NCBI GenBank assembly: GCA_963709925.1
Contig: CAVPYC010000003.1
Location: forward strand, 126,201 to 190,200
Length of the DNA stretch: 64,000 nt
Origin: an uncultured Chloroflexia bacterium
Lineage (GTDB): Bacteria; Chloroflexota; Anaerolineae; Anaerolineales; E44-bin32
Reading direction: 5' to 3'
The first letter of the stretch is position 1. Each line of letters begins with the position of its first letter. Positions 3,464 to 56,300 of this stretch are shown here, piece by piece. The notes under the pieces are model-generated. The model was not told the origin of the DNA. It was given only the letters and a program-made list of their open reading frames with translations, and made no database searches. Made by a program: the position numbers and the translations under genes.

Positions 3464-3530
3464 CCGTCGCAACGCCTCTCGGGTGCGGGCCCCCCGGGGC
3501 CCGCACCCGACCCCCGGGAGGTAAGGCGCC

Positions 3531-14682: not shown

Positions 14683-14841
14683 GGGGATCGGCCGTCAGCC
14701 TTCAGCCATCAGCCATCCATCGAACCCCACCTCCGGCGTGCCGGTGGGACGAGGCTCCGTCTTCACCTTCCCGGATCTTCAGGCTTCCAGGAAGGTCAGC
14801 CGACGGCTGGCGGCTGACCGCTGTCAACTGAACGCTGACAG

Positions 14842-15630: not shown

Positions 15631-15645
15631 GAGAACCCCTCCCCG

Positions 15646-26600: not shown

Positions 26601-29600
26601 AGACGACGGGAGACCAGCCGGCGCCAGGCCACGCGCACGATGGCGTCGATGGCCAACCCGGCCTTGTGGGGCAGCAGGGACACCTCGACCAGCGCCCGTC
26701 CCAGATCGTTGGAGATGATCCGCAGCGAAAAGTGCTTCATTCCCTGGGCGCTGGTGACCCAGGTGAGGGGTTGTGACAGCGGCTGGAACAACACCTGGAG
26801 CAGCACCAGCGCCGCCGCCAGCCAGGCTTGCTCCGGGTCGAGCAGCCAGACCGCGATCAGCAGACCGAGGTTGGCGGCCGGCACCAGGCTGCGGCGCAGA
26901 TTGTCGAAGATCTTCCAACGGTTGACCGACGACAGCGGGTTGCGCTCACGGCGGCCGCCGGGGCGGGGCACCCGCGGCGCCACCCAGTCGGCGATCTGCC
27001 AGTCGCCGCGGATCCAGCGGTGTTCTCGGCGGCCGTAGGTCAGGTAGTCCGGCGGGAACTCGTCGAGCAGTTCGATGTCGCTGACCAGCGCGACCCGGAC
27101 GTGGGCGCCCTCGATCAAGTCGTGACTGAGCAGGTGTTCATCGGGGAAGCGGCCCGAGAGCACCCGGCCGAAAGCGCGCGGATCGTACAGGCCTTTGCCG
27201 TGATACGAGCCTTCGGCGAACAGGTCTTGATAAACGTCGGAGACGGCCTTGGTGTACGGGTCGATCCCGACCGCGTCGGTGAACAGGCGGCTAAAGGGCG
27301 TGGCGCCGGCGGAGGGGAGCGACGGGGTGACGCGCGGCTGGAGGATGGTGTAGCTGCCCGGGAGCACCCGGCCCTGCTCGTCGAAGCGCGGCGCCACCAG
27401 CGGATGGGCCATGGTCTCGATCAAGCGGCGGGCCGTGCCGCTGGGAAGCTGGGTGTCGCTGTCGAGCGTGATCACGAAGCGCACCTCGGTCAGGCGCTCG
27501 GCCTGGCCGACGTGCACCAGCGAATCGGGCTCGGGGTGGGTGCCGTCGATCAGGCGGTTGAGCTCTTCCAGCTTGCCGCGCTTGCGCTCCCAGCCGATGT
27601 AGCGCTGCTCCGATCGGCTCCAACTGCGCTGGCGGTGCAAGAAGAAGAATCGTCCGCCGGGGTGTCGGGCATTGAGCGCCTCGATCCGCTCGACCGCATG
27701 CAGGAACAACGCCTCATCTTCCGGCCGCAGCGCCGCATCGGCGTCGACGTAATCGGTGAACAACCCGAACAGCAGGTTGTCCTCGCGATTGGCCAGGTAG
27801 CGAATCTCCAGCCGCTCGATGGTGGCGTCGATCTGCTGCGGGCTCACCAGGAGTTCCGGAACGACCACCAGGGTGCGGTACTCGTCGGGGATCCCCGTTT
27901 CCGAGAAGTCCAGCTTCGGGAGGGTGCGCGGCGGCAGCAGCCGGGTGACCAGATAGTCGGTGACCTTGAGGGCCAACTGGCTGACCGGGATCAGTCCCAG
28001 CAGGCTGACCAGCAGGGCCAGTCCGGTAGGGAAACCGCGCCAGCCGACGGCCAGGATGGCGGCGATCAGCCCGGCCGAGAGCAGGCCGGCGAATCCGAAG
28101 TACACCGGCGCCGGGTGGGACAGGACGAAGCGCAGGGCACGGTGGCGGAGCCCTTCGCGGCTCCCCAGTTCTTCCACGAAGGCCCGCCGGGCGTCTCCGA
28201 TCAGGTGGGCGCCGATATGACCGAGCGGAGGATCCGGGATCCCCGAGGCGGCCTCGACCGCCGCCTGAGCCACCTCGATCTCGGGGCGGCGAGCGGTGTG
28301 GGCCAGACCTTCGACGGCGCGCCGGTAGCGGTCGCGCGTGTCGAAGTCCATCTGCGGGTAGATTCCCGACGGATCCCGGCGCAGAGTGCGCTCGACGTGG
28401 CTCAGGTTCTCGAACATGCGGCGCCAGTCGAGCAGCGCCAGCTGGCGCAGGCTGGTGAAGGCGTTGCTGACCGAGGTCTGGGCCTGCGACTGGCGGGTGT
28501 GTTCTCGCAGAGTGACCTCGGCCAGGGGCTTGCGGAAGACGCGTTCCAGCCAGCCCTGCACCGGGCCCAGCGCGTCGTCTTCGTCGTACAGGTGGTCGAT
28601 CAACTGCGAGGCGAAGTAGGGCGACGGGGACGGATGGGAGGCGGTGAGATCGGCCAGGACCCCGAACAGGCTGGTCGGATCGCGGCGGCTGAGGGTGAGC
28701 AGACGGTTGGCCCAGTAGTCGGCCATTTGCCGTTGGCGGAGCTGATCGAGAGCGCGGGCGGCCTGGCCGCGGATGTTCTCGACCAGGGCGATGCGCAGCA
28801 TCTGCGGGTAGGCCCACAACTCGCCGATGGTGAGCGGGTGCGCGTGCTGGTAGGCCTCCAGGAAGGCCAGGATGTTTTCGCGCTCGAGCCGGGCGTCGGC
28901 GTGAGCGGTCAGTTCGCTGGCCAGCGCGTAGATGCGCGGCAGCGGCAGCCGCCCGTTGGCCAGCGCCGGCAGCTGGTGGTAGTAGCGGCGCGGCAAGTTG
29001 AGGCGGACGTCGCGGGCGTTGGCTTCGATGATGTACTCGTTGTCCAGGATCCACTCGGAGACGGGCGAGGCGCCCTGGTCGAGTTGGGTCGCGGCCGATA
29101 GATCCTGGCTGACCCGGTGGACCCACAGGCGGGCGCCCTCCAGTCGGCGGAGCAGTTCGGTGTTGCGCCGGGGGCGCGGGTGGAGGTGGTGATCGGCGGC
29201 CAGCCGACGTGCGTGCTCTTCGATCTCCGGCAGAGAGAGGGCCAGCGCCTCCGGGGGCTCGGGCTCCTCGGGTGCGCCTCGTTCGGGGTGGAAGAAGAAC
29301 AGGACCGGCGGTACTTCGCCGCCCTCGCGCAGCAGGGCGGAGGCCTCGGCGGCGGCCTCGACCGGGCACTGCAGCAGGAGCAGCGACTCGTCGGGCACCA
29401 GACGCGGGGCATGTTCGTTGAGCAGGCGGCGCTCGACCCCGAACCGGTTCCGGCGGAACCACAGGCGCGCCACGACCAGGGCCGGCAGCGAGGCCAGCAG
29501 CGCCAGTGTCGGAGGTGTGAGGAAGCGAGGCAGGAACGGCAGCCGCCATCCGAGGGCGATGGCGGCCAGACCGATCATGCCGGACCAGATCACGATCGAG

Positions 29601-29872
29601 AGCGCCGCGCCTACCAGGCGGCGGAGGGAGAAGGGGTCCCAGGTGGTCAGGTTGCCGTCGCCGTCCTTGAGCAGAAGAGCGGCGCGGCGGAACCCGCCGC
29701 GTTCCAGCCCGGCGGCGGCGCTGCGTGCTTCTTGTGGATTGGCGAAGAACCCCAGGACGACGACGTCGGCCATCTGCGTTCCGCGATTGCCATCCTTCTG
29801 GCGGCGAGTCCGACCGGGCCAGTATACCTGCCCCCTCCGTGCAAAGTGACCGGCACCGGTGGGGAGGCCCAC
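20603..29872 (-). CDS. ndvB: Cyclic beta-1,2-glucan synthase (NdvB/ChvB/Cgs-like; N-terminal GT84 membrane domain plus C-terminal GH94 phosphorylase-like domain), about 3000 aa. The 3' third is broken by many frame changes
   Basis: ORF 25094..29872 (1592 aa, intact) is the GT84 region ([12 protein letters not shown]). ORFs 24715..25335, 24582..25109 ([11 protein letters not shown]), 24185..25024 and 21889..24585 (898 aa, GH94) continue it. Fragments 21693..22130, 21293..21757, 20855..21271, 20619..21233 ([23 protein letters not shown]) and 20603..20830 complete the C-terminus. Confidence 0.8.
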
Positions 29873-29879
29873 CAGGCTT

Positions 29880-30560
29880 CATACCGTAGGCTCCAATGCC
29901 GTGGTTGAACTCATCCTGCGGTCGCCACGCGTGAACCGCCGCGTGAGTGCCGAGGCGAGAGCGCACGCCCGTTGTACGGTTGGCACAACAGGATGCCGTC
30001 GATCGTTCTCCCCGCCTCTCCATGCACCTCTCTCCATGGGGGGCCAGGGGAGGGAGTTACACTCCCCTCCCCTTAGGCCTCCCAGGCCCCCCTAACCCCT
30101 CCCCTGTAAGCGGCGGTTGAAGTCTGCCTGCGTTCGCCATGCGTGGACCGCCGCGCGAGTGCCGAGGCGATGACCTGCCGCCGACGCGCGACTGGCGCCT
30201 CGACCGGGAGCCGAAGGCCCCATGGTGTTGGAGGAACGCTCGCATCGCTATGCGGCGGTATCGGTGTTTCCGGGGAAGACTCCCTCCCCCCGCTCCCCTG
30301 AAGAGTCCCGGACCGACAGGCAGGTGCCGAGGCCCCGCACCCCCTCGCGAAGCATCCTGAGGCGAAGCCGAAGGACAAGCCGCTGCCCCTGATCGCGAAG
30401 CATCCCGTAGCGGAGCGGAGGGAAAGCGGCGGTTTGTCTTGCCTTGCGTTCGGGCGACGTGCGACCGCCGCGCCAGCGCCGAGGCGATGGCTCTCGGCCG
30501 TGGCGAGGTAGGCGCCTCTGCGATTAACCAGTCGTCATTGCGTGGCAGTCTCTTCGCCGC
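29880..30560. repeat. Cluster of interspersed structured repeat units (motifs TCGCGAAGCATCC[TC]G..GC, GGAGGGAAAGCGGCGG, GTTCGCCAYGCGTGGACCGCCGCGCGAGYGCCGAGGCGATG) plus G/C-tract palindromes
   Basis: A 35-bp exact match CCCTCGCGAAGCATCCTGAGGCGAAGCCGAAGGAC with 38940-38975. Four copies of the CGCCAYGCGTGGACCGCCGCGCGAG family (29925, 30136, 30452, 39071). Palindrome AGGGGAGGGAgttacaCTCCCCTCCCCT at about 30050. Confidence 0.6.
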
Positions 30561-35858: not shown

Positions 35859-38358
35859 TCAGTACGACCGCGCCAGCCACTCCGCGTTCTCGACGATCCA
35901 GCCCTGCCCTTCCGGGGTAGCCCCGTCGAACGAGCACCACTCGCAGTCGACCTTCCACCAGGTGGTCCCGCCGCTCTCAACCGGGCCGTCGACGAAGGTC
36001 AGGTAGCTTTCCTTCGAGAATGACTCCCAGGATGGGAGCGGTTGTCGAGGGCGAGGCGCGCAGGTTGTAGCGGTCACCGGCCTCCGTGACGAGGTAGGTA
36101 TCCCCCACCCGGAAGAACAGCGCTTCGGTGTGGCTTCCGCCCTCGAATGAGAAGCCCCCGGTCCACGCAGGCCGCTCGGGCGCGGCCCCGGTGTCGAGAC
36201 GCTCGCGCCACTCGTCGTCGGTCAGGCGCTGGCTGCGTGGCTGGAGGAACTCGTAGTACGAGAACACCCCGCCCTGGGCCACCACCAGGCGTCCTTCGAG
36301 CGGGACGATCACGTAGATCCGGTCCACGTAGCCGGTGGCGGCCTCCAGCACCGAGTCTCCGGCGCCGGAAACCGCGGCCACGATCGGCACCTCGGGCATC
36401 TCGCCGATCGGCACGTTGTACGGCGTGACGGTGTAGGTGCACTCGTGGAAACCGAGGCAGCCGGTGATGGCGTAGCGCAGGTCTTCGAGGTCCTGCCCGG
36501 CCAGCTGTGCTGCGGCCGCATCGCCCAGCGCCTCGAGCTGATCGGCCAGCTGCTGCATCAACGACAAATACTGATAGGCCGACGGGTCGGTGAAGTCGTA
36601 GGGTTGGGCCGTCAGGATGGCGGGGTCGAGCCGCCACTCCATCCCTTCACCGATGGCCCGGGCGATATAGGCCATGCGGTAGAAGGCCAGCGGGTTCGGT
36701 TCGACGTAGCTGGGCGCCGGGTCCGAGGTGGGCGGCCCGCCACCGCCGAGTGCCTTCGGGCATCTTCGAGTACAGGACCGTGTCGTGTTTGAGCTCGGCC
36801 CAACTCCCCAGGACGGCGTTGACATCCTTCAGGGCCCAGGCCTGGCTGCGCATGAAGTCGGGGTAGGCCTCGTTCTTTTCCGCTAGGACGGGCAGGAAGG
36901 AGTACAGCCAGGCGCTGTAGGCCCGGCCCAGCCATTGCTCCTCGGGCTGGGCCTCGGCTGCGTCCTGAAGCGCCTGCAGGTTCTCCTCGTACTTCGGGAA
37001 GGCGGTGTCGCCGCGTTCGACCAGCTCCTCCTGCCGCGGCACGAGATCCGAAGGCGGCCGCCACGTCGAGCCCGGTCGGGAACTCTCGACGGGTGCCGTC
37101 GGGGAGCGGATCGACCTTGTCGAAGATCAGGTTCTGGAAGATGTCGGCGTCCATGGTGAAACGCTGGCCCAGGAAGCGCCAGCCCTTCTCGACCTCCAGC
37201 TGAGAACTGAAGTCTAGGAAAGTCGAGTGGATCTGGGGGGCCGGCAGGTCGCCGGTCGAGGATCGGAAGGTCTCCCACAGCGCCGTCGTCGGCCAGATCG
37301 GCGATGGTCGGGTCCGGGCCCGTAGACCGTGTCCATCAGCGCGGCGTACTCCAGCGGACCCAGGTCATCGGTCGGGCCGATCAGGAAGTCGAGCACCCGG
37401 TGGATCTGCCCCACGAGTTGGCCGCCGGCGATCTCGCCCACCCGGGCCTGGCGCAGGGCCAGGGTGAGGATCACGGGCAGGCGCGACGGGACGAAGGCCG
37501 GGTCGTCGGCCTTGCCGAGCGGGAAGTGGACCCGGCCGAGCCAGGTCATGCCGCGGAAGTAGGCTTCGAGTTCGGGATCTCCGGCGTAGTGGCCGACGGG
37601 CTTGTAGGCGCCGTAGTCGTCTTCGAAGTCGGGGAACAGCGCCGAGTCGTCTCGCCCGCCGGCGGCCATGATCTGCGCCAGTTGGGCCGACACCTGATCG
37701 GGCAGCGCCAGGGGCGGTGCGGCTTCCGGGTCGAACAGTTGGATGGCGACTTCGAGGTAGGCCTCGGCCAGCGCCACGTCCTGTTCGATCGAGGTACCGC
37801 TGGCTTCGGCGGCGGTACTGCGCACCTGGTCTTGGGTGGCGGTCAGCATGTCGAGCATCTGGAGGCGGAGCGCCTGCTGCTCGAGGGCCTTGAGCATGTC
37901 GTCGAACAGCAGGTGGAGGGCGTGGAAGGCCTCGTCGGTGGTGCGGAAGAACGGCTGGCCCTGGACGTAGGCGGTGTTGTAGCGGATGTCGTTGAACTGA
38001 GGCTCCTGGCTATGGACCACGACGAAGCCGTTCTGGCTGAGGAAGGCCCGTTGTTCCGCGGTCAGCCCGGCGATGACTTCCGGGTTGGCGACCGTCTCGA
38101 GATCGACCCCGAGGGGGACGGGCGCACCCGCGTAGGGGGCGGGTGACCAGGCGAGCGGCGCGGCGGCTTCGAAGAACGGCTCGGACAAGTTGACAACGAA
38201 GGCGTCCAGCGCCGGGCCGGAGGACGGGCGACGGGTCGGGCGCGGGGTGGCGGCCTGATCCGTCCCGGAAGGGACGGATGGTGCGACCGCCTGGCAGGCG
38301 ATCGAGGCTGCGAGAAGTGCGGTGGCGGCGGAGGCGAGGCGGGCGTGGGGGGGCATGG
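35859..38358 (-). CDS. DUF3160-family lipoprotein (about 830 aa); at least 4 frame changes
   Basis: GGAG RBS then ATG at about 38358 (MPPHARLASAATALLAASIACQA lipobox). DUF3160-like body in ORFs 37214..38545, 36647..37042 (WLYSFLPVLAEKNEAYPDFMRSQAWALKDVNAVLGSWAELKHDTVLY) and 35977..36825. C-terminus in 35859..36077. Confidence 0.6.
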
Positions 38359-38399
38359 GATGGCTCCGTGGACCTCGGACGAGTCTGAGGGTCTCTTCG

Positions 38400-39190
38400 A
38401 GGATAGTCCCAAAGGTGGAGAGGGGCAATCGGCTGATGCGCTGACGCCAGCACCGATCGAAGGGGTTGGTCCCCCAGACCCCCTCGCGGAGCATCCTGAG
38501 GCCCTTCGCTCTGCTCAGGACAGGCTTCGCCGAAGGACGAACCACTCCCCGGTTTGCGAAGCATCCCGCAGCCGAACGGAGGGAATGGGGCGGATGGTCT
38601 TGATCTCAGTTCGAAGAGCAGGGGCGCCGCGGCTTTGGTCTCGCCCAGCCGCGAGGTCGGCGCCTTGGATCCTCCTCTGTGGTTCCTTGGTGGTTGAGGT
38701 GGCCTTCGAACGCTATACGGCGGTATCGCGTCATCCGGGGAAGACTCCGCTCCCCGCCGTTTGCTAGGGAGGGGGGTGGGGGTAAGGGGGCGAGGGGGGA
38801 GGGGAAAGCACTTTCCCTCCCCCCTGCCCCCTGAATGGTAACCAGCCCGCGAACGCCGATCACAGTCTTTGGGAGGCCAGAGGAGGGAAACTCCCCTCCC
38901 TATCGCGGAGCACCCCGGAGCGGAGCGAAGGGGTTGGCCCCCAGACCCCTCGCGAAGCATCCTGAGGCGAAGCCGAAGGACGTTACCCCTCCCCTGTTCG
39001 CGAAGCACCCCGGAGTGTAGCGGAGGGAAGCGGAGGGAAAGCGGCGGGCGTCGGCCACTTGCGTTCGCCACGCGTGGACCGCCGCGCGAGCGCCGTGGCG
39101 AGGCCTCGCGGCAATGGCGAGGCTGGCGTCTCAACACGCCCATGGTGGGAACCCGCCGCTCGCGTGGCCCTGCTTGACCCAGGTTCGCAC
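38400..39190. repeat. Second cluster of the interspersed repeat family (5 copies of TCGCG[AG]AGCA[TC]CC motifs, GGAGGGAAAGCGGCGG, CGCCACGCGTGGACCGCCGCGCGAGCGCC) plus poly-G/C palindromes
   Basis: See 29880-30560. Units at about 38466, 38535, 38890, 38940 and 38985; palindrome GGGAAAGCACTTTCCC at about 38800. Lies in the divergent region between the DUF3160 gene and cassette A. Confidence 0.6.
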
Positions 39191-39193
39191 CGT

Positions 39194-39307
39194 TTTGATG
39201 TCTTGAACCCCTGCGAGTTGTGATGTACCTTAGGTGGTACTCGAGTACTCCCCGTTTTCCGGGCCTGAAAGCCCGGACGTCGCCTCACCAAGGGGGTCAC
39301 AGGGGGC
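39194..39307 (+). promoter_or_regulatory. Conserved about 115-nt leader of surface-protein copy A: TTGAAC box, 14-bp perfect palindrome AGTACTCGAGTACT (39239-39252), stem-loop CCGGGC-ctgaaa-GCCCGG
   Basis: Nearly identical to 46166-46291 upstream of copy B. The stem is conserved while the loop differs (ctgaaa versus ttgaga). Confidence 0.45.
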
Positions 39308-41899
39308 GTGCGGCTCAGGGTTCGAACCCTCAAGCGACTGGTTTCCGGAGGCCTGCTGGCCCTGGGCGCGCTGACCCTGGCCGGGTCGGCGCTGGCCGAC
39401 TACACCGGGCCCGACCGGGTGATCTCGACGTTCTCGTGGGAGCGGCTGGTCTGCGACTATGACGTGGTCTACGATCCGCCCGGTACAGGCTGGTATGGCT
39501 GCAGCCTGACTCTGTACCGACCTCCCGACGGATCGTGCCCGAGTCCCTGGGGGTACTTCACGTCGAGTGTGTGCGGCTGGTCGGTTTCCTCCTTCTGCCC
39601 CGGACCGTACTGCGACCTGAACGAGAGCGAGAGCATCGATTCGTGCAGCTCCGACCAACAGCGGCTGCCGGCAGGTGGAGAGCCAAACCACCCATCCGGA
39701 GGCGACGGTGGCCGGGAGCGTCGACTGCGGCGAACCGGGCTCCGGCGGATGGTGCCGGGGCGGGGCCAGCCTGTCGCTCTCGGGAACCGAGCCGCTTGCG
39801 GGCTACTCGATCATCGGCCTGGAAGGGACGCACAACAGTACGCCCTTCTACTGTTCCGGTTTGTCGTGCAGCCTGCCTCTGGTGGAGGGCGGCAACGACT
39901 TCGACTTCTGGGCGATCTCGTCGTGGGGCGACACGTCCAGGATGGATTCGGCCGGCGGGTCGCTCGATAGCAGCGACCCGTCGTTGGACGGTTCGATCTC
40001 GGGCACCGGTGGCGACAACGGCTGGTTCGTCTCCGAGGTGACCATCAGCGCCTCGGCCAGCGACGCAGTCTCCGGAATTGCCAGCCTGGACGTGAAGGTC
40101 GACGGAGGCGGGTGGGTGTCCTACGGTGGGCCGATCACCCTGGGCGAAGGGAGCCACAACGTTGACCTGCGAGCCGTCGACGTGGCCGGCAACACCGCCA
40201 CCGAGAGCTTGAGCATCGACGTCGACAGTGTGTCTCCGTTTGTAGATCTGGATGCGGTGCCGTCGTTCTGCCCGGGTTGCGGCGAGACCCTGGGCATCCT
40301 GGTCATCGTTCAAGACAGCGGCAGCGGGATCGCCGATTGGGACCTGACCGCCGACGGTGTGGGCGTCGCCGGCGGCGGGAGCACCACCAACCAGACGATC
40401 ACCTGGGACGGTAGCGGCCTCGGGGGCAGGCCTGCACGACATCGACCTGGAGGCCCGCGACGTGGCCGGGAACCAGTCGGGCGCCAGCTTCACCGTCAAC
40501 CTGGTGCTGCCGACCCCCACCCCGACCGAGGTGCCGACCAAGACTCCCGTGCCGACCGACACCCCGGAGCCGCCGTCGCTCTTCGACCTGTTCTCCGCGC
40601 GCGACTCCCTTCCGCTACGCCCCAGGGGCCCTCGGCGGCCACACCCACGCGTCTCCCCACGGCCACGCGCACGCCGCTGACCATCCTGTTCGGCGCTCCA
40701 CCTCCGGCTCCGGCGACCCCGCCGGGAGCGGACCACCCGCCGATCCGTTCGCCGGCGCCTCGCCTCAGGGTTCGATCCTGGCGCTGCCCTCCGGTGTGGT
40801 CTACGGAGGCGCGGCGTTGGCGCTGGGTGCTGCCGCGACGGCCTATGCCGCTCGACCAGGCCCGCAAGCGGAAGGAGGAGGAGGCAAGGCAGCGAGAGGA
40901 GATGCGGCGCCTGAATGCCCAGGCGGAGGCGCGGGAAGAGGCCGAACGTGCCCGCCTGGGGGCGCTGTACGCTGCGGCCGCGGCTGCAGGAGCAGAGGTG
41001 ATGCGGAGGGACGCGGAGCGGAGGGGGCTGGAAGATGGCGCCGGTGCCGCTTCACCGCCGAAGTTGTTTGCCCCCGCGCCAGGAGGCCGACGGGACGACG
41101 ACGAGCCTTCGAAGCCGGGGAGCCTGGAGTGGAAGGAGCGGATGCTGGAGCCGGCCTTGCCGCCGGAACCGCCGCCTTTCGACCTGGCCAGGTGGAAGCA
41201 GGAGGACTACGCGGCAGGGAAGGGGTGGGAGAGGGAGAGGGCCGCACGAATCCACCGTGAAGGGGAAGAGCAGGGTGAGCATCGCGACGGGTTCGCCTTT
41301 GACCTTAGTGGACTCAGGCAGGGCGTGAGTTTGGCGGACAAGATCGCCGACCCTCATTCTAGCTGGGAGGCAAGTCCGAACTTTCGAGGAATTTGGAATT
41401 CTCCGAGTTTTGGGCCGAGAGACGCGAGAGGCGCCGTCGGGATTTGGGAGTACGTGAATTGGGTTGGCATAGCGAGTTGGAGCCTCCTCGTCCAATCTCC
41501 TGTCACGTGTGCAGTCCGAGGCTGAAATCGAAAGGCACCCTTCTGGGTTTGACGACGAACCTTTTCCTGGATGGAAAGGCGTTCGATCGAGGGAGGTCAG
41601 ACCGACACGAATTCGCCGCAGCACTGACGGTGGACACAGGGATAACTGTTGGAACTACGCTTGCCGCTGGCTTCGTCGCAGGGATGGTTACGGGGGCCGT
41701 CTCGGGTGGCTTGGCAGCCAACGTCGCCCTCCCGCTCGTCGGAACCGTGCCCGGAGCCGTGATTGGAGGTATTGTTGGGGGTGTCGTAGGAGCAGCCGTG
41801 GCAATCGGGATCTCATACACGCTTGAGGAAGCGGGAACCCGGCAGCTTCTCGTCGAGAAAGTGGCGGACCTATTCAGATCATGGGAGTTCACGCATTGA
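39308..41899 (+). CDS. Large cell-surface protein, copy A (signal peptide, Cys-rich N-domain, Ig-like repeats, Pro/Thr linker, hydrophobic segment, E/R/K-rich coiled coil, variable C-terminal region ending in a glycine-zipper segment); at least 4 frame changes
   Basis: ORF 39308..39970 (MRLRVRTLKRLVSGGLLALGALTLAGSALA...), 39675..41525 (SIDVDSVSPFVDLDAVPSFCPGCGETLGILVIVQDSGSGIADWDLTADG...PTPTPTEVPTKTPVPTDTPEPP), 40796..41260 (SGVVYGGAALALGAAATAYAA) and 41393..41899 (GFVAGMVTGAVSGGLAANVALPLVGTVPGAVIGGIVGGVVGAAVAIG). Confidence 0.6.
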
Positions 41900-41977
41900 G
41901 AACCGAAGGGACGCCCGGAGCATGCCTCGAAAGAGGCATCCTCGAGCTACGCCTTCGATCGCCTGTGGGAAGCCATC

Positions 41978-42403
41978 TTGGACGAGATCCCACGTCGAAG
42001 AACCTCGTTCTTCCTAACTTCTCCCCTGGCGTGCTTCCTGTTCTGGGTAGTAGGGATCGGGATCGCGAAGAACCCTCCAAGCACACTGATCCCAAGCCTT
42101 GTACCCTCGATCGCAGTTCTCGCCGTAGGTGTCGCTTCATTTCTCGCGCTGAAGCGCTGGAAACGGCGGAGCAGGAAGACAGTCTCTAGTACTCGCCGCG
42201 TGGCACTCACCAACCTCGCCTACTACTCAACGATGCTCCTGGTTCTCTCCTTCTACAGCCTATGGATCGCGATTGGAGCCTCCCCAAGCTCGTCACCTGC
42301 CCCATCGCCGATGGGCATCTTGCTTGCTGGCGTATACGCCCTGTCGATAATGGCATCGTTGCTTTGGGCGCCGAGGTCCACCTCCTCGATCACCGGTAGA
42401 TGA
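41978..42403 (+). CDS. Membrane protein (141 aa, about 4 TM), lower GC; candidate immunity/accessory protein of cassette A
   Basis: TM segments FFLTSPLACFLFWVVGIGIA, LVPSIAVLAVGVASFLAL, LAYYSTMLLVLSFYSLWIAIGA, MGILLAGVYALSIMASLLWA. GC clearly lower than flanking sequence. Confidence 0.5.
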   Translation: MDEIPRRRTSFFLTSPLACFLFWVVGIGIAKNPPSTLIPSLVPSIAVLAVGVASFLALKRWKRRSRKTVSSTRRVALTNLAYYSTMLLVLSFYSLWIAIGASPSSSPAPSPMGILLAGVYALSIMASLLWAPRSTSSITGR

Positions 42404-42791
42404 TCAAGGCGCTGGCCACCGGCAAGGGGCCTGGGTACCATGGATTTTCGTCGCTCAAGGATGTGCTGTTGGGGCCGCCGTCTTCACTGGCGCTTGGCTT
42501 AGACAAGGGTGGGCGAGCTACGGAGCGATGCTTGTGATCGGCCTGTTCGGGTTGTCAGCAGTTCTTCTCGTGACGATCGGGGTTCTTGCCTCCTACCGCT
42601 GGCTCGCCCTCGCATCTAGGCCTAGTCCTACGGATGTGTTTGCCCAACATGGAATCAGAAGCTAGCTTCACCGCAGGTGGCCACGGCAGGCATCTGTGGA
42701 CGGCCTTGAGGACCCCGCTGACCCGATAGGAGAGGGTCATGCGCAGGGCTCAACTCTCGCTTCTCTCCGCAGCTCTGGGGCGCCCTGATCC

Positions 42792-43151
42792 ATGATCGGG
42801 GCAAGGAGCCTGTCGGGCGGGGACCCGGCCTCAGCTTCTACCTCCACCCTCGGCCTGGGTACCGGCCCAATCATGGGCGGCATCCTGGGCGGCATCTTCG
42901 CCGCGTGGCTGGCTCTCGGCGGGACCCGCCGAGTTGCCGGAACTGCGGGAGCACTCTTCGCAGTTCTGGTAGTGCTCGCCGCATGGAATGTGGCCCAACC
43001 GTCCATCTGGATCGTCGATGTTGTCTTGAATGAGATACTCGGCGAGGGCGGTGAGCTGTACTCTGGATTGGCAGTCTTCCTGGTTCCGGCTCATCCCACT
43101 TTTTCGGTTGATTTCAAGTTTCGCCGGGCGGAACTTTTTCGCCAGCCGTAG
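42792..43151 (+). CDS. Small Gly-rich membrane protein, paralog of 50626..51194
   Basis: LGLGTGPIMGGILGGIFAAWLALGGTRRVAGTAGALFAVLVVLAAW...VVLNEILGEGGELYSGLAVFLVP compares with LGLGSGVILGAVLGGILGGWLVIGGRRRVARTAGFLLGVAFIYGAW...VVMHEIFGEGGEQYSALVLFLIA. Confidence 0.5.
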   Translation: MIGARSLSGGDPASASTSTLGLGTGPIMGGILGGIFAAWLALGGTRRVAGTAGALFAVLVVLAAWNVAQPSIWIVDVVLNEILGEGGELYSGLAVFLVPAHPTFSVDFKFRRAELFRQP

Positions 43152-43448
43152 GCTCCCGCGGTCAGGGGCAGGACAGCGGCCATTCGGCGTGAGGGACAGG
43201 GGCTGTGTCTGAGTTCGGGCCGGGGAAGGGGTCAGTGGTGAAGAGAAGGCTTGGACCTCAGGCGGTTGGGGTTTCTTCGGGCCAACTGATCGCCTGTCCG
43301 ATGGTCAAGACAATGTTAGGAGTAGGGACGCCAAGAGTCGTGCGGAAGAGTGAACGGCCGGGAGGTTCAACCCCCGATCGCCGCATGGCCCCTATGGAGG
43401 TCCTTGGCATGGGTGTTGTGACCTAATGGAATCTCTGCGACTCTTCTG

Positions 43449-43820
43449 TTGCTTGCCACACTCATTTCGTCACGGTTTCCTTCGATCATCATGCTTGTGG
43501 TTGCGGGATTGGCACTCTTACTCGGGACACTGTTCACAGTGTGGGCATGGAAGGACCACACCCTCGTGCCGAGACTGGGCGGAACTGTGGTTGTCACCAT
43601 GTTTTTCTTGGCGATGGGCATATGGTTCTGGGGCGCTTTCTTACGGTGTGTGGCTCTGGGGTGTGGTAGCCCTCATTTTGATTCTCTCTATACCGTAGCT
43701 TGGACGTTGCCGGCGATCTCAAGCGCCGCCTCGTCGCTTCTGTGGAGAGAACAGGCCACTCCCCAGACCCGTGTTGGGCGCAGGATCTTCACATGGATCT
43801 GGGCTTCTCGGAGTTCTTAG
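43449..43820 (+). CDS. Hypothetical membrane protein (123 aa), lower GC
   Basis: Three predicted TM helices (MLVVAGLALLLGTLFTVWAW, VVVTMFFLAMGIWFWGAFL). No family recognised. Confidence 0.35.
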   Translation: MLATLISSRFPSIIMLVVAGLALLLGTLFTVWAWKDHTLVPRLGGTVVVTMFFLAMGIWFWGAFLRCVALGCGSPHFDSLYTVAWTLPAISSAASSLLWREQATPQTRVGRRIFTWIWASRSS

Positions 43821-44027
43821 GGCGTGGTGTTGTGGGGGCAAGCTTCGGCACCTCGTTATCGAGAACGGGGAACGTGGCTTTAGCAAGCCTGATTGTTGCT
43901 GTTGGCATGTCGGCAGTAGCCATATTTATGGCACAAGGCTTCTCTCACCAACTCTGGCCCAGGAGGGACCCGGACGAAGGGGTCCGCACTGACCTAGATT
44001 TATCTTCAGGACCTACGCCATGACCTG

Positions 44028-44356
44028 ACGCAGATCCATTGCGATCGCCGGAACGTCTTCCATGGCGGTCCTCCAGACCGACAGCGGCATCGAACCCCGA
44101 AGTAGTCATGGATGAGCTTGTCCCGCATGCCGGCCACTTCGCGCCAGGGGACGACGGCGTATTCTTCCTTGAAAGACGTAGGGATCTTCTTCGAGGCCTC
44201 GCCGATGATCTCGATCGCACGCACGACGGCGTACTGGGTGCGTTCGTCCGTGAGGAACTCCTGCTCGGTCATCCCGGAGGTGAAGGTGGCCACCTTTTCA
44301 GTGGCCTCGAGCATGTCGTCCACGTAGTCCCGGAACTCCGACTTGCCCCTCATACA
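44028..44356 (-). CDS. hepT: HepT-like toxin (DUF86; nucleotidyltransferase-substrate-binding type II TA toxin); C-terminus frame-shifted
   Basis: [20 protein letters not shown]...[47 protein letters not shown]. Two small indels restore ...[24 protein letters not shown]. Confidence 0.65.
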
Positions 44357-44609
44357 GGAACGAGGCTTTCGGAGGATTTGGGCGCCGATGCGGGGGCTTG
44401 AGGGCGTTGCGGAGGACCAGATCGACCGGGGAACCCAGTCGGTCGGATAGCAGGTTCTCCAGTTCGACGAACGGCAAGGAGGCCGGGGGTTCGCTAAACG
44501 AGACGAGCAAGTCGATATCCCCGGCTGGATTCTCCAACTGCGGGTGGGTGATCGAACCGAATACGGCGATTTCCTCGACGCGGTAGCGAGCCCGGAGGTC
44601 CGGTAGCAT
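44298..44609 (-). CDS. mntA: MntA-like minimal nucleotidyltransferase antitoxin
   Basis: AGGAGGAG RBS then ATG at 44609. [23 protein letters not shown] is the NTase GS...D.D motif. The ORF tail over-reads into hepT, so the true stop probably lies at about 44330. Confidence 0.65.
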
Positions 44610-44768
44610 CTCCTCCTCAGGACTGGCAGAACAGTCTCGAGCGTCGGCTTTCTATTCACGATGGGGATTATACAGGTCGCCCCTGGTTCTCGGCCCCACG
44701 CCCTGCGGTCCTGGTGGTCGTTCCGGGGCGCAGCGGTTTCCGTGTGATCAAACGGTCGACGAATGGCT

Positions 44769-45886
44769 CTCAAATGGGCTCCATGCCTTCGTTGAGGATG
44801 GCGAGATAGCGGTCGTAGGCGTACACGCGGTTGCGCCGTCGGCCGGTGAGTTCGCGGGCCACTGCCGGCCGCCAGGATCTCGATGGCACGGGCAGCGGTC
44901 GGGTAGCTGACGCGTGCGCGCGCGGTGAATGTCGTTGATCGTTGCCACCGGCCGTGCCCGCAGCGCGCCATATACTTTCAGCAGACTTGGCGCTGCCGCG
45001 CCCCGTGCGGCGAGCCGTGCCTCGTCGTTCTGGAACAGAGCGAGTAGACGGTGCGCCGTGTCAACCGCGCTGCCAGCGGTTTCGATCACGCCTTCGAGGA
45101 AGAAATCCAGCCAGGCTTCCCAGTCGCCATCGCGGCGGACGGATCGAGCAGGCGGTAGTATTCATCGCGGTGCTGTTTGAAATAGAGGCTCAGATACAGC
45201 AGCGGCTGGCGCAGGACGCCGGCATGATGAAGCATCAGGGCAATCAGCAAGCGGCCGACGCGGCCGTTGCCGTCGAGAAACGGGTGGATGGTCTCGAACT
45301 GGACGGTGCGGCCAGGGCGGCTCGACCAGCGCGGAGAATGGCGAAGTGTCGTCGTGAAGGAACCGCTCCAGGGCGGCCATGCAGCCTCCGACGTTTCAGG
45401 GGGCGGCGGGACGAATTGGGCGTTACCCGGCCGAGGGCCACCGATCCAGTTCTGGGAGCGACGGAACTGGCCGGGGGATATCCCGCTCCCCCGGCCCCGT
45501 TCCAGGAGACGAGCGTGCATCTCCCGAACGAGGCGGTTCGAGAGGGGGGATCCTCGCTGCAGCCGGTCTAGCCCGTGATTGAGCGCGGCGACGTAGTTGG
45601 AAACCTCCACCACGTCGTCCAGCGGTACGCCTGGCGCATCTTCCAGCTCGAATAGCAGCAGCTGGGCGAGCGACGATTGGGTTCCCTCGATCTGGATGTA
45701 GATGCACGGCTTCGTCCGGACGTAGGCGTAGAGGAAGACATCGGGGTCCGGCAGGAGCAGCGTGACGCTGTCGAGCCGTCCCAGCGTGAGCGTGGCGGTG
45801 CTCGACCAGACGCTGTCGTTCGTGGGTGAGCTCCAGCGGCGGATCCGGCGGCAAGGGGCCGGGTAGACAAGCCCGACCCTGTTCAC
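44769..45886 (-). CDS. Fic/DOC-family protein with C-terminal winged HTH; at least 2 frame changes
   Basis: [20 protein letters not shown]...[14 protein letters not shown], the Fic motif [14 protein letters not shown], and the C-terminal ...[16 protein letters not shown]...[24 protein letters not shown] recovered across frames. Confidence 0.65.
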
Positions 45887-46165
45887 CGCCGGCGGACGTC
45901 ACCTTGTACTGGCCCGTCGGGCCTCGATGCACTGCGGGGCCTCCCTGCGCTCTGCGATCGTTGAATAGCATACCACGCTATTTAACCAACAACCCAATTC
46001 GCTTAATAGCGCGGGAAATCGTGGATCGCCTAACATCCCGGGCCGATTGCCGGAGAGCGTGTGGTTGGCGCGGGTTACTGTTCTTTCTGGGGAAGCGCCT
46101 CGGACCGTGCCTGACGTTTCGGGCCCGATCTCATGGTCCGGTCTGGCGTAGCTTTGGCCCGTTTG

Positions 46166-46291
46166 GTTGTCTTGAACCACTGCGAGTTGTGATGTACCTT
46201 AGGTGGTACTCGAGTACTCCCCGTTTTCCCGGGCTTGAGAGCCCGGACGTCGCCTTACCACGGGGGTCACAAGCGTCGTGCGCCTCAGGGT
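46166..46291 (+). promoter_or_regulatory. Conserved leader of surface-protein copy B (same palindrome AGTACTCGAGTACT and stem-loop as 39194-39307)
   Basis: About 95% identical to the copy-A leader. Confidence 0.45.
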
Positions 46292-48677
46292 ATGTCTCTC
46301 CATCGACTGCTCTCCTCAGGCCTGCTGGCCCTGGGCGCCCTGACCCTGGGCCGGGCTGGGCGCTGGCCGACTACACCGGCCCCGACCGGCGATCTCGACC
46401 TTTTCCTGGGAGCGGCTGGTCTGCGACTATGACGTGGTCTACGAGATCCGCCCGGTACAGGCTGGTATGGCTGCAGCCTGACCCTTTACGAGCCTCCCGA
46501 CGGGTCCTGCCCGAGCCCCTGGGGGTACTTCACCTCGAGCGCGTGTGTGGCTGGTCGGTTTCCTCCTTCTGCCCCGGACCGTACTGCGACCTGAACCAGA
46601 GCGAGAGCATCGATTTGTGCAGCTCCGGCCAGCAAGGCTGCAGGCAGGTGGAGAACCAGACCACCCTGCCGGAGGCTACGGTCGACGGGTCGGTGGACTG
46701 CGGCTCACCCGGGGTCGGGCGGGTGGTGCCGTGGCGGGGCCAGCCTGTCGCTCTCGGGGAGCGAGCCGGTCTCGGGCTACTCGATCATCGGCCTGGAAGG
46801 GACCCACAACAGCACACCCTTCTACTGCTCCGGCCCGTCGTGCGGCCTGCCGCTGGTCGAAGGCGGCGATCGAGTTCGACTTCTGGGCTATCTCCTCGTT
46901 CGGGGACACCTCGCGGATGGGCTCGGCCGGAGGATTGCTGGACGGCGGAGATCCGTCGATGAACGGGTCGATCTCCGGCACCGGTGGAGGAACATCCAGC
47001 TGGTCTCGTCGGCGCTGGTTGTCGGCGGCCTGGCCAGCGACCACGGTCTCAGGTCTGGCCAGCCTGGACGTGGTCGATGGCGGCGGTGGAGTTGCTATGG
47101 CGATCTGGCGATCACCCTCGGCGATGGAAGCCACGACGTCGAGCTGCGAGCGATCAAGACATCGTCGCGACACCACCAGCGAAGGCCTGAGCGTCGACAT
47201 TGACAGCGTCGCTCGATCTTCATGGACCTGGAACGCGGTGCCGTCGTTCTGCCCGGGTTGCGGCGAGACCCTGGGTGTCCTGGTCATGGTCCAGGACAGC
47301 GGCAGCGGGATCGCCGACTGGGACCTGACGTCCGACGGGATGGGCATCAGCCGGCGGCGGGAGCGCCACCAGCACAGACGATCACCTGGGGCAGGTGATG
47401 GCCTCGGGGAGGGCATGCACGACATCGACCTCGACGCCCGCGACGTCGGCGGGGAACGAGTTCAGGCCGAAGCTTCACGGTCAGACTTGGTGCTGCCAAC
47501 CCCCACCCCGACTGACAGAGCCGACACGAAGACCTCCTGGTGCCGACGGACACTCCGGCAGCCGCCGTCAAGCTATTCGACCTGTTCTCCAGCGCCAGAC
47601 CCCTGTCCGCCGCTGCCGCCAGCGGCACTTCGGCGGCTCACACCCACGCGTTCCCCGACGGCCACGCGGACGCCGCTGACGATCCTGTTCGGCGCTCCGC
47701 CTCCGGCTCCGGCGAGGCCCGCCCGGAGCGGTCCACCTGGCGACCCACTTCGCCGGCGCCGCCGCCGGGTGCAGCGGTTCGATGCTGGCGATGCCCTCGA
47801 GCGTGGTCTACGGCGGCGCAGCGTTGGCGCTGCGGGCTGCCGCGGCGGCCTATGCGGCTCGACCAGGCGCGCAGGCGGAAGGAGGACAAGTGTGCGACGC
47901 AGAGGGAGGAGATGCGGCAGCGCGAATGCGACGGCGGAGGCGGGAGAAGGCGGAAGCGGAGCGAATTGCCGAGGCGAGCAGCCAGGCCGAGCACGACCTG
48001 TTGATGGGCGAGATCCTCAACCAGGCGACGGGCGGCGATGCGCCTTCGGCCGCCTGGCTGGCCGCGGCGGCGGCAGCGGCGAAGCGGCGCGGCGCAGGCT
48101 GGAGGGGAAGGAAGAGATGCTCGACGCCGGAGCCGATCCGAATTCCGACGCCGCCGCCACCGTGGGCCGGATCGACTTCGACATCGGCCGCTTGGAAGCA
48201 GCAGGACTATGCGGCGGTGGGAGGCATGGGAGAGGGCTGTCGCGCCAGAGCGATACCGCCGCACGGAACATGATTCTCCGACACAGACCACCTCGGACAG
48301 AGATCCCGTGGTGGCAGCAACCCATCCGCTGGCTCAACGATGCACTGGTCGATTTCGTTGTACACCCTCCACCCATACTAAGTCTTTCATTCGCACAGCA
48401 AGCTCCTGGAGCTGCGCTCCAGAGCTACGTCCTCGACGAGTGGATCAGGTATCAACCTAGGGCTGGCAGCTTTCTGGACGAGATCAGTTATCAGAGCGTC
48501 TCCGTGTGCGGAGATATGTCGTATAAGATCACTAGCAATCCAGCAGGCCTCGCAGACGTGAATCTCGCCAATGGTCGTCTCACCTTATATCTCCCCGAGC
48601 TGACGAAGTCGGACATCATTCTACGTTCAGCTTTCGCCCTCAGTTTCGGTCCGTCACGACCGTACCTGTGGACGTGA
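46292..48677 (+). pseudogene. Large cell-surface protein, copy B: about 90% nucleotide identity to copy A over about 2 kb, then a divergent low-GC (about 52%) 3' end. Heavily frame-disrupted
   Basis: MSLHRLLSSGLLALGALTLG... parallels copy A through WKQ[EQ]DYAA (48215 versus 41214). Numerous small indels relative to A. Tail ...PIRWLNDALVDFVVHPP...GDMSYKITSNPAGLADVNLANGRLTLYLPELTKSDIILRSAFALSFGPSRPYLWT*. Confidence 0.55.
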
Positions 48678-49249
48678 CCAGTCTCCCCGTCGATGGCCTG
48701 GGACACTGGTGGTCTTGTCTCGGTCACTGCTGTCGACATGGATATATTGGGAGGAACTCGGCGACGGTCAGTTTGGCAGGGGCAGGGTCTTCCTCTCGTC
48801 CATCTCGCACTATGACGGCGGGGATTTCCATCGATCGGTTCCGATCTTGCCCAGGTCGAATGACGGTCCACCGTTGGCCTCGGTTGTAGTCGTCGTGGCC
48901 GCGCGGTCGCGCCGTCACCGTCGGTTGGAGGCGGCAGTCGTTTGGCCCCTCCGTCCCCACGTTGCAGCAGCTACGGATCATCCTTCGCTTCTCAGGACCG
49001 GACAAAGAGCTTCCGTTGGGCTGTACTCTTGCCGTGCCATTGTGGCTTCCGGGTCCATCGGGAACAACCGTTTCCCGGCCTCCGAGGCCGTGCCCCGGGA
49101 TATGCCATCGCCAGACGGTATTTCCCCCGACCTGCCCGAGTTACCATCATCTCGTCAGCGAGTGCAACCAGAGGACGAATCCTGTACACGGTTCTGGGCC
49201 CTACGTCCGAACCACTAGGCCCCCCCTGTCGATGCCGTAATGATCGAGA

Positions 49250-49900
49250 TCGCCCCGAGGCCGTCGCTACTACGCGTTTGGGACAGACCCTTCCGGCGGG
49301 ACCATTGAAGTCCTCGATCTCGTTACCGGCGAGCGGAGCCTCCTCGTTGAGGGCGAGACACAATTCCCTGGAGCGGCATTGCGGTTCCCTTCGTTCTCAT
49401 GGGACGATCGCCTTGTAGTCTTCGAGGTTTCTGCAGGTAACCGGATTGACGTCGGGCTGTTTGACTTGAGGGCTGGCACGGTTCAACTGCTAGATTCTTG
49501 GGGGAGGGTTCAACAAGTGGCCGAGGGTATCGCCGGATGGAAGCAAGGTACTGGTAGTCTGTGAAAAGGAGGCTCAGGCGGCTTTCTCGCTATGCCTATT
49601 GGATCGTGAGAAACGAACGAGAGGGTACCTGGTCGATGACAGTGTATTCACGAACGGCATGTTCGCCCCGGATGGGAACACAATCGTCTACATTGCCGTG
49701 GAGGGAGCTTCCCGGGGGAGGGGCGCTTGTACCGGGTGGGCGTCGATGGCATTGACCAGCGGCTTCTGGCGTCGGATCTTCACAGCGGAGCTGCGGTTCT
49801 GGCCGTCACGGCTGATAGCGCGGGTTTACGTGCCGATATCCAGATGAACCTGCCTGCAGCTGGGTCTGCACGGTTGGCCTTGATGGCGCGAACCTCAGCG
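49250..49900 (+). pseudogene. Degraded fragment of a PD40/TolB-like beta-propeller gene
   Basis: Frame-hopping peptides GTIEVLDLVTGERSLLVEGE..FSWDDRLVVFEVSAGNRIDV, FAPDGNTIVYIAVEG and LYRVGVDGIDQRLL (PD40 repeat pattern). Low GC. Confidence 0.3.
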
Positions 49901-50625
49901 TCTGATCTACCTCGGCAAACAATGCGTTGCCTCAGCGGGTGGGTCAGGGGAGGCTCAGCCGTAGGACGACGAACCGGCCAGCCTTTCCTTCGCCTCGCTA
50001 TCGACGACGAGTTGGGTCGTGAGCACCAGGTGCTTGAGACTCGTCCTCTGGAAAGAAATGGCCGATGTTGTAGCGGATGCACGGAAGGGGAATTGACTCT
50101 TGTGAAGGGTATGTTCCGACATGGAGAAAACGACAAGGTGCGAAAGCTTCCAGTCAGCGGCTGGGACACTTTTGGCAGCTTGATCGGCAAGGATGAAGCT
50201 AGACTTGTTGCCAGTGAGAGCTACGCGGATGAGCGATCATGTTGGCGCTCGAGGTGTCAGGTATCAGGTTGACACATTCAAGTCGGAGTTCTCTGCCGTC
50301 TCAGTGTTCATCGGCTCAAGGGGTTGCAACCGGGATGGTCGATAGGTAGAGGAGAGTCCGCTGGTGGGCGTTGTCGCGAGTTCCTTGACTACCTGGAGGA
50401 TCGGCGAAAGCCCACGCGCGGAAGTCCGTCGGCAAGCGGAAGAGCTGGCGGGGCTTGGGATCAGAGAAGCCCTGCGAAGCACGCGCAGAGTTGCACCCGG
50501 GTGGAATGACGTCACACACTTGTTTGACGGTTCAGCTCCTGCGAGCGAATGGGCGAGTTTCACTCGGTACTACGACGACCGGAGCGCCCTGAGGGAGGAG
50601 GTGCTCGGAGTTAACCCATCGCCAG

Positions 50626-51194
50626 ATGCTCGCGCACTACACCACTTCTCATTCGGGTCCCTACCAGGCTTCCGTCCATTCCCGGTTGCGTGACATTCGT
50701 CACAATTCTCTAGGGTTCCCAGGGCCGAGAAGAAACCACTGGGGGAGCGGGGTGACTAAACCTCTGCGTCGTGCTGTGATACTCGTAGCGGCCTCCGCAG
50801 CTACAGGTTGGATTGTTGTTGCGATTGCGAGAGGACTTGCTGGGCACGACCCTGCTGCGAAGCTCGCCTCCGCCCTTGGTCTCGGCTCCGGGGTGATCCT
50901 GGGAGCCGTGCTGGGAGGCATTCTTGGAGGTTGGCTCGTCATCGGTGGAAGAAGGCGGGTCGCAAGGACGGCTGGCTTCCTTCTGGGCGTCGCCTTCATC
51001 TACGGCGCCTGGCTGGGGACCAGGTCCAACCTTGGGTTCTAGATGTGGTGATGCACGAGATCTTCGGAGAGGGGGGTGAGCAGTACTCCGCCCTGGTGCT
51101 GTTCTTGATCGCCATCCCGCTGTTCCGAACCGTCGCCGGGGTCGGCACAGGCCTTGTGGGGAGCCTGCTCCTGGCCCGGAGAACTCTGACCTAG
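50626..51194 (+). CDS. Small Gly-rich membrane protein (paralog of 42792..43151) with one frame change
   Basis: ORFs 50626..51042 and 50808..51194 in two frames jointly match the copy-A-side paralog. Confidence 0.45.
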
Positions 51195-51309
51195 CGAACA
51201 CGACAGGCGCAGGATTGAACAGAACCGATCGCCGATTCAGAGAGAGGATGCAGAGACGATCCCCGCACCTCTTCCCGGCCGGCACCTGCGGTAACATGAC
51301 GCCTTCGAA

Positions 51310-55899: not shown

Positions 55900-56300
55900 G
55901 ACTTCCCCTCCCGCGGTCCCCTGAGGCGCGTGAACCCCCGTTCCCCTCCCCGCCTCGCGGAGCATCCCGCAGCCCTTCGGCAGGCTCTGGGCAGGCTCCG
56001 CGGAGGGAAAGCGGCGGTTGAACGTTTCTTTCCCGTGAAGAAGAGGATCTGCCGCTGAGCCCCGACGCGAAACCTTGCGCAAGAGGCGGGGTCCGCGCCA
56101 CCGACTTGGATCACCAGCGCGCGATGGCGATCGCCCGTCCTCACGTCGCATTCGAGCGGGCGAGGGGGTCGACGATCCTGAGGCAGCGCGGGCGATCGGA
56201 GCGCTACCTTGTGGAAGTGCCCTGACCGGGCATGAGTTCCTTCTGCCAGGTTGCCCTGCAAGGCTGTTGAATCCTTCCCCCATTGCGTGTAACCTGAACT
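55900..56300. repeat. Third locus of the interspersed repeat family (CCTCGCGGAGCATCCCGCAGCC ... CGCGGAGGGAAAGCGGCGGTTGAACG)
   Basis: Shares motif 1 and motif 2 with 30340-30430 and 38460-39060. Confidence 0.5.

Follow-up and report, generated by a model that had tools for sequence, protein, structure and literature searches.

The window analysed here, a 64-kb stretch of metagenomic DNA from an Anaerolineae-type member of the Chloroflexota, carries two copies of a gene for a surface protein with immunoglobulin-like (Ig-like) domains, each preceded by a non-coding leader. We propose that this leader comprises the promoter and short 5′ untranslated region (UTR) belonging to genes for one Ig-like protein family, located in the membrane or at the surface, in Anaerolineae-type Chloroflexota, and that it was copied along with its gene when the gene was duplicated in this genome. 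From 5′ to 3′, the predicted parts are phased YTTGG repeats, a −35 element CTTGAA, a −10 element TANNNT, a dyad of the form R-GTAC-N4-GTAC-Y-(C)TCC, and a variable UTR leading to CCAGGGGG-N10-GTG. Judged by conservation in related loci, the promoter, the box formed by the dyad and the ribosome binding site are real and under selection, and the box is an uncharacterised cis-element of Anaerolineae of an ordinary kind. We hypothesise, with moderate confidence, that the dyad is a start-overlapping operator to which a dimeric DNA-binding repressor would attach, blocking open-complex formation or promoter escape and thereby switching the surface-protein gene.

To our knowledge, there is very little information on the promoters and transcription-factor sites of Anaerolineae and of other uncultured Chloroflexota. 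The leader offers a promoter with a clean footprint (CTTGAA at −35, TANNNT at −10 and phased repeats further upstream) together with a candidate operator, R-GTAC-N4-GTAC-Y, tied to one Ig-like surface family, and is a usable start for motif-based regulon searches in Anaerolineae metagenome-assembled genomes (MAGs). Its value lies mainly in annotation; if the box is an operator, this would be a hint, too, of switched expression of a variable surface protein.

The predicted promoter and the GTAC box in the window and in related loci

In copy 1, on the forward strand, the predicted −35 element CTTGAA(C) lies at positions 39202..39207 and the predicted −10 element TACCTT, an instance of TANNNT assigned from the conserved footprint only, at 39226..39231, 17 nt after TTGAAC and downstream of an invariant TG at 39221-39222. 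Alignment of the promoters places the corresponding elements of copy 2, also on the forward strand, at 46171..46176 (CTTGAA(C)) and 46195..46200 (TACCTT). The copy 1 leader runs into a Shine-Dalgarno-like AAGGGGG and a GTG start (39290..39310, forward strand; G-run 39292-39296, GTG 39308-39310), and the arrangement CCAGGGGG-N10-GTGCG of ribosome binding site and start is conserved in orthologues. The box itself reads G-GTACTCGAGTAC-TCC in both copies (39236..39251 and 46205..46220, forward strand) and contains a perfect 12-bp palindrome (39237-39248 and 46206-46217). A preliminary description of this DNA had given the palindrome as the 14-mer AGTACTCGAGTACT, which is not present in the window; the DNA reads GGTACTCGAGTACT there, of which only the 12-mer GTACTCGAGTAC is a perfect palindrome. 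Starting 5 nt after the copy 1 −10 element, the box spans the predicted transcription start and covers about −2 to +14 relative to it. The exact 12-mer occurs at only two sites in the 64 kb, and since both stem from a single duplication, selection cannot be demonstrated from the window by itself. Each promoter also holds three GTAC tetramers within 24 nt (39225, 39237 and 39245; 46194, 46206 and 46214), one of which overlaps the −10 element.

Relatives were collected by a search with the frameshift-corrected protein, which returned 39 homologues, all in Chloroflexota-type MAGs or metagenomes. The DNA was examined around nine of these 39, and two more loci came from promoter-anchored pattern scans of species genomes and metagenomes; the species-genome scan covered one genome for each of 185,579 species, a collection outside which the source genome of the window apparently falls. 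The same layout, CTTGAA(A/C), 16-17 nt, TANNNT, 4-5 nt and R-GTAC-N4-GTAC-Y-(C)TCC, recurs in L001, L003, L004, L007, L010, L011 and L012, where L001 is a near-identical strain of copy 1 and the remaining proteins that were measured share 51-65% identity with copy 1. CTTGAA is invariant in all eight aligned promoters, and in ten when L006 and L013 are added. Among the eight, the TTGA of the −35 element and the first T, the A and the final T of the −10 hexamer are invariant (variants TACCTT, TAATCT, TAACCT, TAATGT, TAAGGT and TAGCCT), the spacer is 16-17 nt, and a constant 4-5 nt separate the −10 hexamer from the box; these promoters represent seven loci, both window copies counted, and L001 has the same layout. 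The hexamers are arranged as in a sigma-70-type promoter, with matches to the full consensus at only four to five of six positions in the −35 element and three of six in the −10 element. We infer that the leader is an ordinary sigma-70-type promoter with a short 5′ UTR, both the assignment and the start position being predicted.

Conservation within this unit is uneven. Among five lineage representatives, pairwise identity is 100% for CTTGAA, 41% for the promoter spacer, 66% for the −10 region, 90% for the 12-nt box and 100% for its two GTAC half-sites. The box varies at its central N4 (TCGA, TCGG, CGGG) and flanking pair (A..T, G..T, G..C) alone. In L006 and L013, the promoter and CCTCC are kept and the dyad is lost from its usual position; a one-mismatch dyad, GTACTCTAGTCC, lies 10 nt further upstream, overlapping the −10 hexamer, where it could act on DNA yet would not be transcribed. 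These two loci have a GTAC over the −10 hexamer as well. L002 and L005, which are more distant homologues, have no such box.

The species genomes contain three matches to the pattern TTGAA-N26-30-GTACTCGRGTACTCC, one upstream of the Ig-like family in an Anaerolineaceae MAG (L010) and two inside coding sequences (CDS) of unrelated bacteria; we take the latter two to be due to chance. A scan of Joint Genome Institute metagenomes with the promoter-anchored pattern gave a single occurrence, upstream of the Ig-like family, and a sequence profile of promoter plus box, applied to the window and to 52 kb of related loci, recovered the known copies only. A literature search for the box motif returned loop sequences of short hairpin RNAs only.

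Upstream of the −35 element, alignment anchored on CTTGAA gives the consensus CTTGG..C.gTTTGGCg..gc.TGg, 20-45 nt before it. In copy 2 this conserved box is TCTGGCGTAGCTTTGGCCCGTTTGG (46140..46170, forward strand), with the phased YTTGG repeats common to the orthologue promoters; in copy 1 it is degenerate. The block, CTTGGCACGATTTGGCGCAGC, places YTTGG every 10-11 nt down to the −35 element and is found at 46140-46170 of the window, at 2830-2856 of L003 and in equivalents in L007, L010, L012 and L013. Its role may be that of an activator site or of a curved UP-like element. The block resembles the TGGCAC element of sigma-54 promoters, but with GG-N9-GC spacing instead of N10, on which ground a sigma-54 promoter was rejected by eye. 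An extracytoplasmic function (ECF) sigma promoter was likewise rejected by eye for want of a CGT-type −10 element. An invertible, phase-variable promoter was dropped because inverted repeats flanking the promoter and common to the two copies were not found.

A candidate operator and competing readings of the box

Across the orthologous promoters the dyad combines conserved half-sites with a freer centre, as an operator would, and it overlaps the predicted +1, a position that depends on the predicted promoter. The invariant arms, free centre, fixed distance from the −10 hexamer and displaced near-dyad of L006 and L013 fit a symmetric protein on double-stranded DNA better than a structural RNA. 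In addition, the pairs of a possible RNA stem are invariant rather than covarying, and GUAC makes a weak stem in a genome with a guanine-plus-cytosine (G+C) content of 67%, which favours sequence-specific recognition over a hairpin. Known start-overlapping operators, such as those of LexA, lac O1 and the OxyR site that lies beyond the agn43 start, are likewise short dyads with conserved half-sites and a free spacer, placed right after the −10 element; the GTAC box has this form in front of a surface-protein gene. Unlike these operators, the GTAC box comes without a known cognate protein, inducer or regulon, and its symmetric core is only 4 + 4 bp; since GTAC is self-complementary, the box is equally readable as a direct repeat (GTACTC twice, with a period of 8).

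Several observations weigh against an operator. A nearby helix-turn-helix regulator, which the preliminary description had suggested looking for, was not found: no gene with this or another regulator domain lies beside either copy or beside eight related loci, and a Pfam search of the remaining window, aimed at lexA, recA and other regulators, returned only a LacI-family gene at 1204-2061, about 37 kb away. Neither the exact pattern nor a sequence profile revealed a second target of the box in the 64-kb window or in 52 kb of related loci, and a regulon, as expected for many repressors, is thus not supported. A strict sigma-70 consensus scan called no promoter at copy 1 or copy 2, the transcription start is a prediction from sequence, and the comparison covers only about five lineages, which share ancestry. 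Finally, the flanking pair varies as A-T, G-T and G-C, as RNA pairing would also allow, and the conserved CUCC is complementary to the GGGGG of the ribosome binding site, as is GUAC to the GUGC at the start codon.

The last two points bear on the possibility, which we think unlikely, that the box acts in the mRNA, either as a 5′-terminal hairpin R-GUAC/N4/GUAC-Y directed against 5′-end-dependent RNases or through GUAC...CUCC pairing that throttles translation. Transcripts would then start at or just before the box, and the variable inserts would sit in the enclosed loop, an arrangement that we also think unlikely as part of the same proposal. RNAalifold predicts a long-range helix of 13 pairs that joins the box to the ribosome binding site and start codon, GUAC pairing with the start-codon GUGC and CUCC with the GGGGG ribosome binding site, and most of these pairs can be formed by all eight sequences. 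CUCC follows the box in all lineages, CCUCC is kept in L006 and L013 despite loss of the dyad, the flanking positions always pair, as A-U, G-U or G-C, and inserts of variable length are tolerated between box and ribosome binding site. However, the predicted helix amounts to −6.75 kcal/mol only, with a covariation term of +0.71 and no compensatory pairs, both of its partners being too conserved for covariation to decide, and partition-function folds give 0.1-1.9 expected pairs between box and initiation region in seven of eight UTRs. A 5-bp stem at the 5′ end is possible in all sequences, but the GUAC palindrome hairpin reaches only −2.7 kcal/mol in isolation and an in-context probability of 0-0.86 across UTRs, and the mRNA 5′ end is itself a prediction; a start inside the first GTAC, as predicted, would truncate the stem. 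Counting the pairs of this hairpin gives four that are invariant and one that is AU, GU or GC, and 257 of 500 shuffles reach the observed covariation. Distinctly unlikely, in our view, is a leader free of regulation, in which a strong core promoter and its initially transcribed sequence would have been kept by descent and by selection on strength or start choice, and the identity of the two copies would reflect a fairly recent duplication or gene conversion. Such a leader would be consistent with the similar identity of leader and CDS between copies (91.2% against 90.7%), with a coding 60-nt window as similar as the promoter, with the mosaic identity between copies and strains, as from gene conversion, and with the lack of a regulator beside the loci and of additional box matches across the window and 52 kb of loci. 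Yet the spacer has drifted to 41% while the eight half-site positions stayed invariant as a dyad between lineages with proteins 51-65% identical, and symmetric conservation over 12-15 nt is not normal for initially transcribed regions.

If the box is an operator, a special case would be an SOS (LexA) box of the cyanobacterial or Gram-positive type, with the surface gene in the LexA regulon, which we consider very unlikely. LexA sites typically lie over the start of transcription, as this box is predicted to do. The LexA box of Nostoc has the consensus RGTACNNNDGTWCB (PMC3091678), which shares the 4-N4-4 geometry and is fitted at every position by GGTACTCGAGTACT (window), AGTACTCGGGTACT (orthologues) and GGTACCGGGGTACC (L012), with the limit that a Nostoc consensus may not be that of the host. 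Also in favour, variants of GAAC-N4-GTTC have been reported for Cyanobacteria and Chloroflexi (PMC4951493). The consensus is degenerate, however, and the central 4 nt are G+C-rich here but A/T-rich in cyanobacteria, for which the box is quoted as AGTACWNWTGTACT (Mazon et al. 2004, as cited in PMC3091678). Moreover, the downstream gene encodes an Ig-like membrane protein and not a DNA repair function, the window contains no lexA, recA or uvr gene for comparison, and a match to the box at the Ku-LigD gene pair (12128-15645) has one mismatch and sits inside the LigD CDS, not in a promoter. The one characterised LexA of Chloroflexi that we know of (Dehalococcoides) binds the GAAC-N4-GTTC type, which also counts against a LexA box. 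By analogy with agn43, where OxyR and Dam act, the GTAC tetramers could instead be targets of a GTAC-specific methyltransferase over the operator, resulting in methylation-dependent ON/OFF phase variation of recombining surface proteins; we regard this as highly improbable. The mosaic allele identity fits a variable surface antigen, and an orphan GTAC methylase with no restriction partner is possible. For Chloroflexota, we know of no description of an epigenetic switch of the agn43/OxyR-Dam kind. The window shows no avoidance of GTAC (observed/expected 0.84), so that a restriction system is not indicated, and a restriction-driven GTAC signal was rejected on this basis.

The hairpin in the 5′ UTR

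Downstream of the box, in the presumed 5′ UTR, copy 1 contains the hairpin U-CCGGGC/CUGAAA/GCCCGG-A on the forward strand (39258..39277, with CCGGGC-N6-GCCCGG at 39259-39276; −14 kcal/mol, z = −2.4), and copy 2 contains CCGGGC(U)/UGAG/(A)GCCCGG, also on the forward strand (46229..46246; −13.9 kcal/mol). As the preliminary description stated, the hairpin CCGGGC-N6-GCCCGG is present in both copies with the stem kept and the loop different; the two differences both lie in the loop, and one of them adds a U-A pair. Contrary to what had been claimed, the stem-loop does not covary, since the stems are identical in both copies with no compensatory change, and orthologues have no hairpin or unrelated ones. 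Conservation is lacking in the segment that separates the box from the ribosome binding site, and UTR length ranges from 42 to 112 nt. This segment is nearly absent and free of a hairpin in L004 (UTR 48 nt) and L011 (UTR 42 nt), holds the unrelated hairpin GAGAGG/CCTCTC in L012, and in L003, L007 and L010 contains an insert of 40-70 nt with an unrelated hairpin, resembling repetitive extragenic palindrome (REP)-like intergenic repeats. The CCGGGC/GCCCGG hairpin occurs only in the lineage of the window, with no other copy in the 64 kb, and on this evidence is a lineage-specific insert at a permissive spot of the UTR, where it would at most stabilise the mRNA slightly.

The preliminary description proposed a structured 5′ UTR; taken as a riboswitch-like or otherwise structured cis-regulatory RNA centred on the stem-loop, this is barely credible and largely refuted. 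The hairpin is stable (−14 kcal/mol, z about −2.3), present in both copies and changed in the loop only, and some hairpin stands at the same place in three of five lineages. However, the hairpins of the other lineages are not homologous to it, L004 and L011 have none, and the insert of L003, L007 and L010 is like dispersed REP-like intergenic repeats. A fold and covariance-model check of the leader, which had been suggested, was negative: Rfam gave no match at the gathering threshold in the whole window and only two chance-level matches at E <= 10 (39100-39400), and whole-UTR folds of seven UTRs were no better than shuffled sequences (z −0.21 to +0.79), with no covariation. A terminator scan called none after the hairpin, and since no U-tract follows it, it is not a terminator or attenuator. 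The earlier proposal of a regulated promoter plus a structured 5′ UTR therefore survives in its first half, which is backed by the footprint in seven further loci, and not in its second.

Leaders of S-layer and outer-membrane protein genes, slpA and ompA for example, stabilise their mRNAs via a 5′-terminal stem-loop. Like these long structured 5′ UTRs, the leader described here precedes an exported surface protein and has a possible hairpin at the 5′ end as well as a further hairpin in the UTR; unlike them, its 5′ hairpin is weak (−2.7 kcal/mol), its UTR length (42-112 nt) and internal hairpins are not conserved, and its folds are no better than shuffled. The UTR inserts of L003, L007 and L010 invite comparison with REP-like or MITE-like (miniature inverted-repeat transposable element) sequences, as they share CTTCGCTCAG...GCGAGG motifs with the window repeats at 38469-39135 and 29896-30424, whereas the CCGGGC/GCCCGG hairpin of the window has no copy in the 64 kb beyond the two leaders.

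Gene duplication, repeats and genomic setting

Gapped alignment delimits the duplicated block to about 39190-40940 and about 46160-47950, and homology of the copies begins about 12 nt upstream of the TTGAAC box (39203-39208; 46172-46177). The encoded order is signal peptide, Cys-rich region, Big_13 Ig-like domains, Pro/Thr-rich linker, membrane anchor and charged tail, the last two being taken from full-length homologues and not placed exactly relative to position 40940. Both gene copies are split by frameshifts in the assembly. The copy 1 gene (39308..40940, forward strand) encodes the signal peptide, Cys-rich domain, Big_13 Ig-like domains and Pro/Thr-rich linker; the copy 2 gene (46278..47950, forward strand) is 86.6% identical to it with 91 gap columns, compared with 13 between copy 1 and strain L001, and is either a pseudogene or badly polished sequence.

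The preliminary description correctly reported two leaders, each before a copy of the surface-protein gene and each with a TTGAAC box. It also held that the leaders are more conserved than the adjacent coding sequence, which is true of a 50-nt stretch running from the −35 box through the GTAC box (39203-39252, 49/50 identical between copies, with one coding 60-nt window equally good) and not of the leader as a whole. Between copies, the leader at 39194-39307 is identical at 104 of 114 positions (91.2%) with one gap column; identity is 90.7% over the opening 393 nt of the CDS and 86.6% over the duplicated CDS as a whole. Because the leader is no better conserved than the CDS, a fairly recent duplication, which the same description had named as an outcome that would undo its reading, or gene conversion would explain the leader within the window; the footprint in orthologues argues for constraint. 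Allele identity is mosaic, copy 1 being 100% identical to L001 over 39701-40100 and 91.5% over 40101-40500, and comparison of 39308-40940 with L001 and with 46278-47950 suggests recombination or gene conversion among surface-protein alleles.

Modular REP-like intergenic repeats lie at 29896-30424, 38469-39135 and 55940-56008 of the window (families D1, D8, D13 and D14; 69-83% identity) and contain the motifs TCGCGAAGCATCC and CTTCGCTC..CTCAGG. They are common to two intergenic regions of the window and to other Anaerolineae genomes, with one block directly upstream of the copy 1 promoter, and recur in L007 (about 1850-1960), in L010 (about 3400-3480) and in the 5′ UTR inserts of L003, L007 and L010.

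The window has a G+C content of 66-70% and was placed in an Anaerolineae-type Chloroflexota MAG by protein matches, three database proteins being 99.7-100% identical; the nearest named relatives are MAGs labelled 'Anaerolineales bacterium', 'Chloroflexota bacterium' and 'Anaerolineaceae bacterium'. The region around the two gene copies (about 36000-48700) is dense in frameshifts. A DUF3160 gene (35977-38545, reverse strand) is in at least three pieces, and between the copies a HepT toxin gene (44006-44971, reverse strand) and a Fic gene (45086-45886, reverse strand) are split as well; in contrast, open reading frames of 838-1594 amino acids at 12-30 kb of the window are intact. The contig names of L001 and L003 resemble the output of a metagenomic long-read assembler, and given such contigs and the density of frameshifts, single-base insertions or deletions in this stretch should not be over-interpreted. 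The frameshifts reflect either a strain-variable island with poor consensus from long reads or genuine decay of the genes. Each copy is followed by a stretch of lower G+C content (59.5-63.5%; 41500-44000 and 48700-52500) with small predicted membrane proteins that have no Pfam matches, and the region, with its low G+C content, HepT and Fic, may be a variable genomic island. On the syntenic strain contig L001, a nucleotidyltransferase antitoxin gene stands beside the HepT gene; none is annotated in the window.

Elsewhere in the window, adjacent genes for Ku (14842-15645) and a multidomain LigD (12128-14644) form a non-homologous end-joining module on the reverse strand (12128-15645). A further open reading frame on the reverse strand (25094-29878) is intact, encodes 1594 amino acids with a high G+C content at third codon positions and no Pfam match, and has the REP-like block at 29896-30424 as its upstream region.

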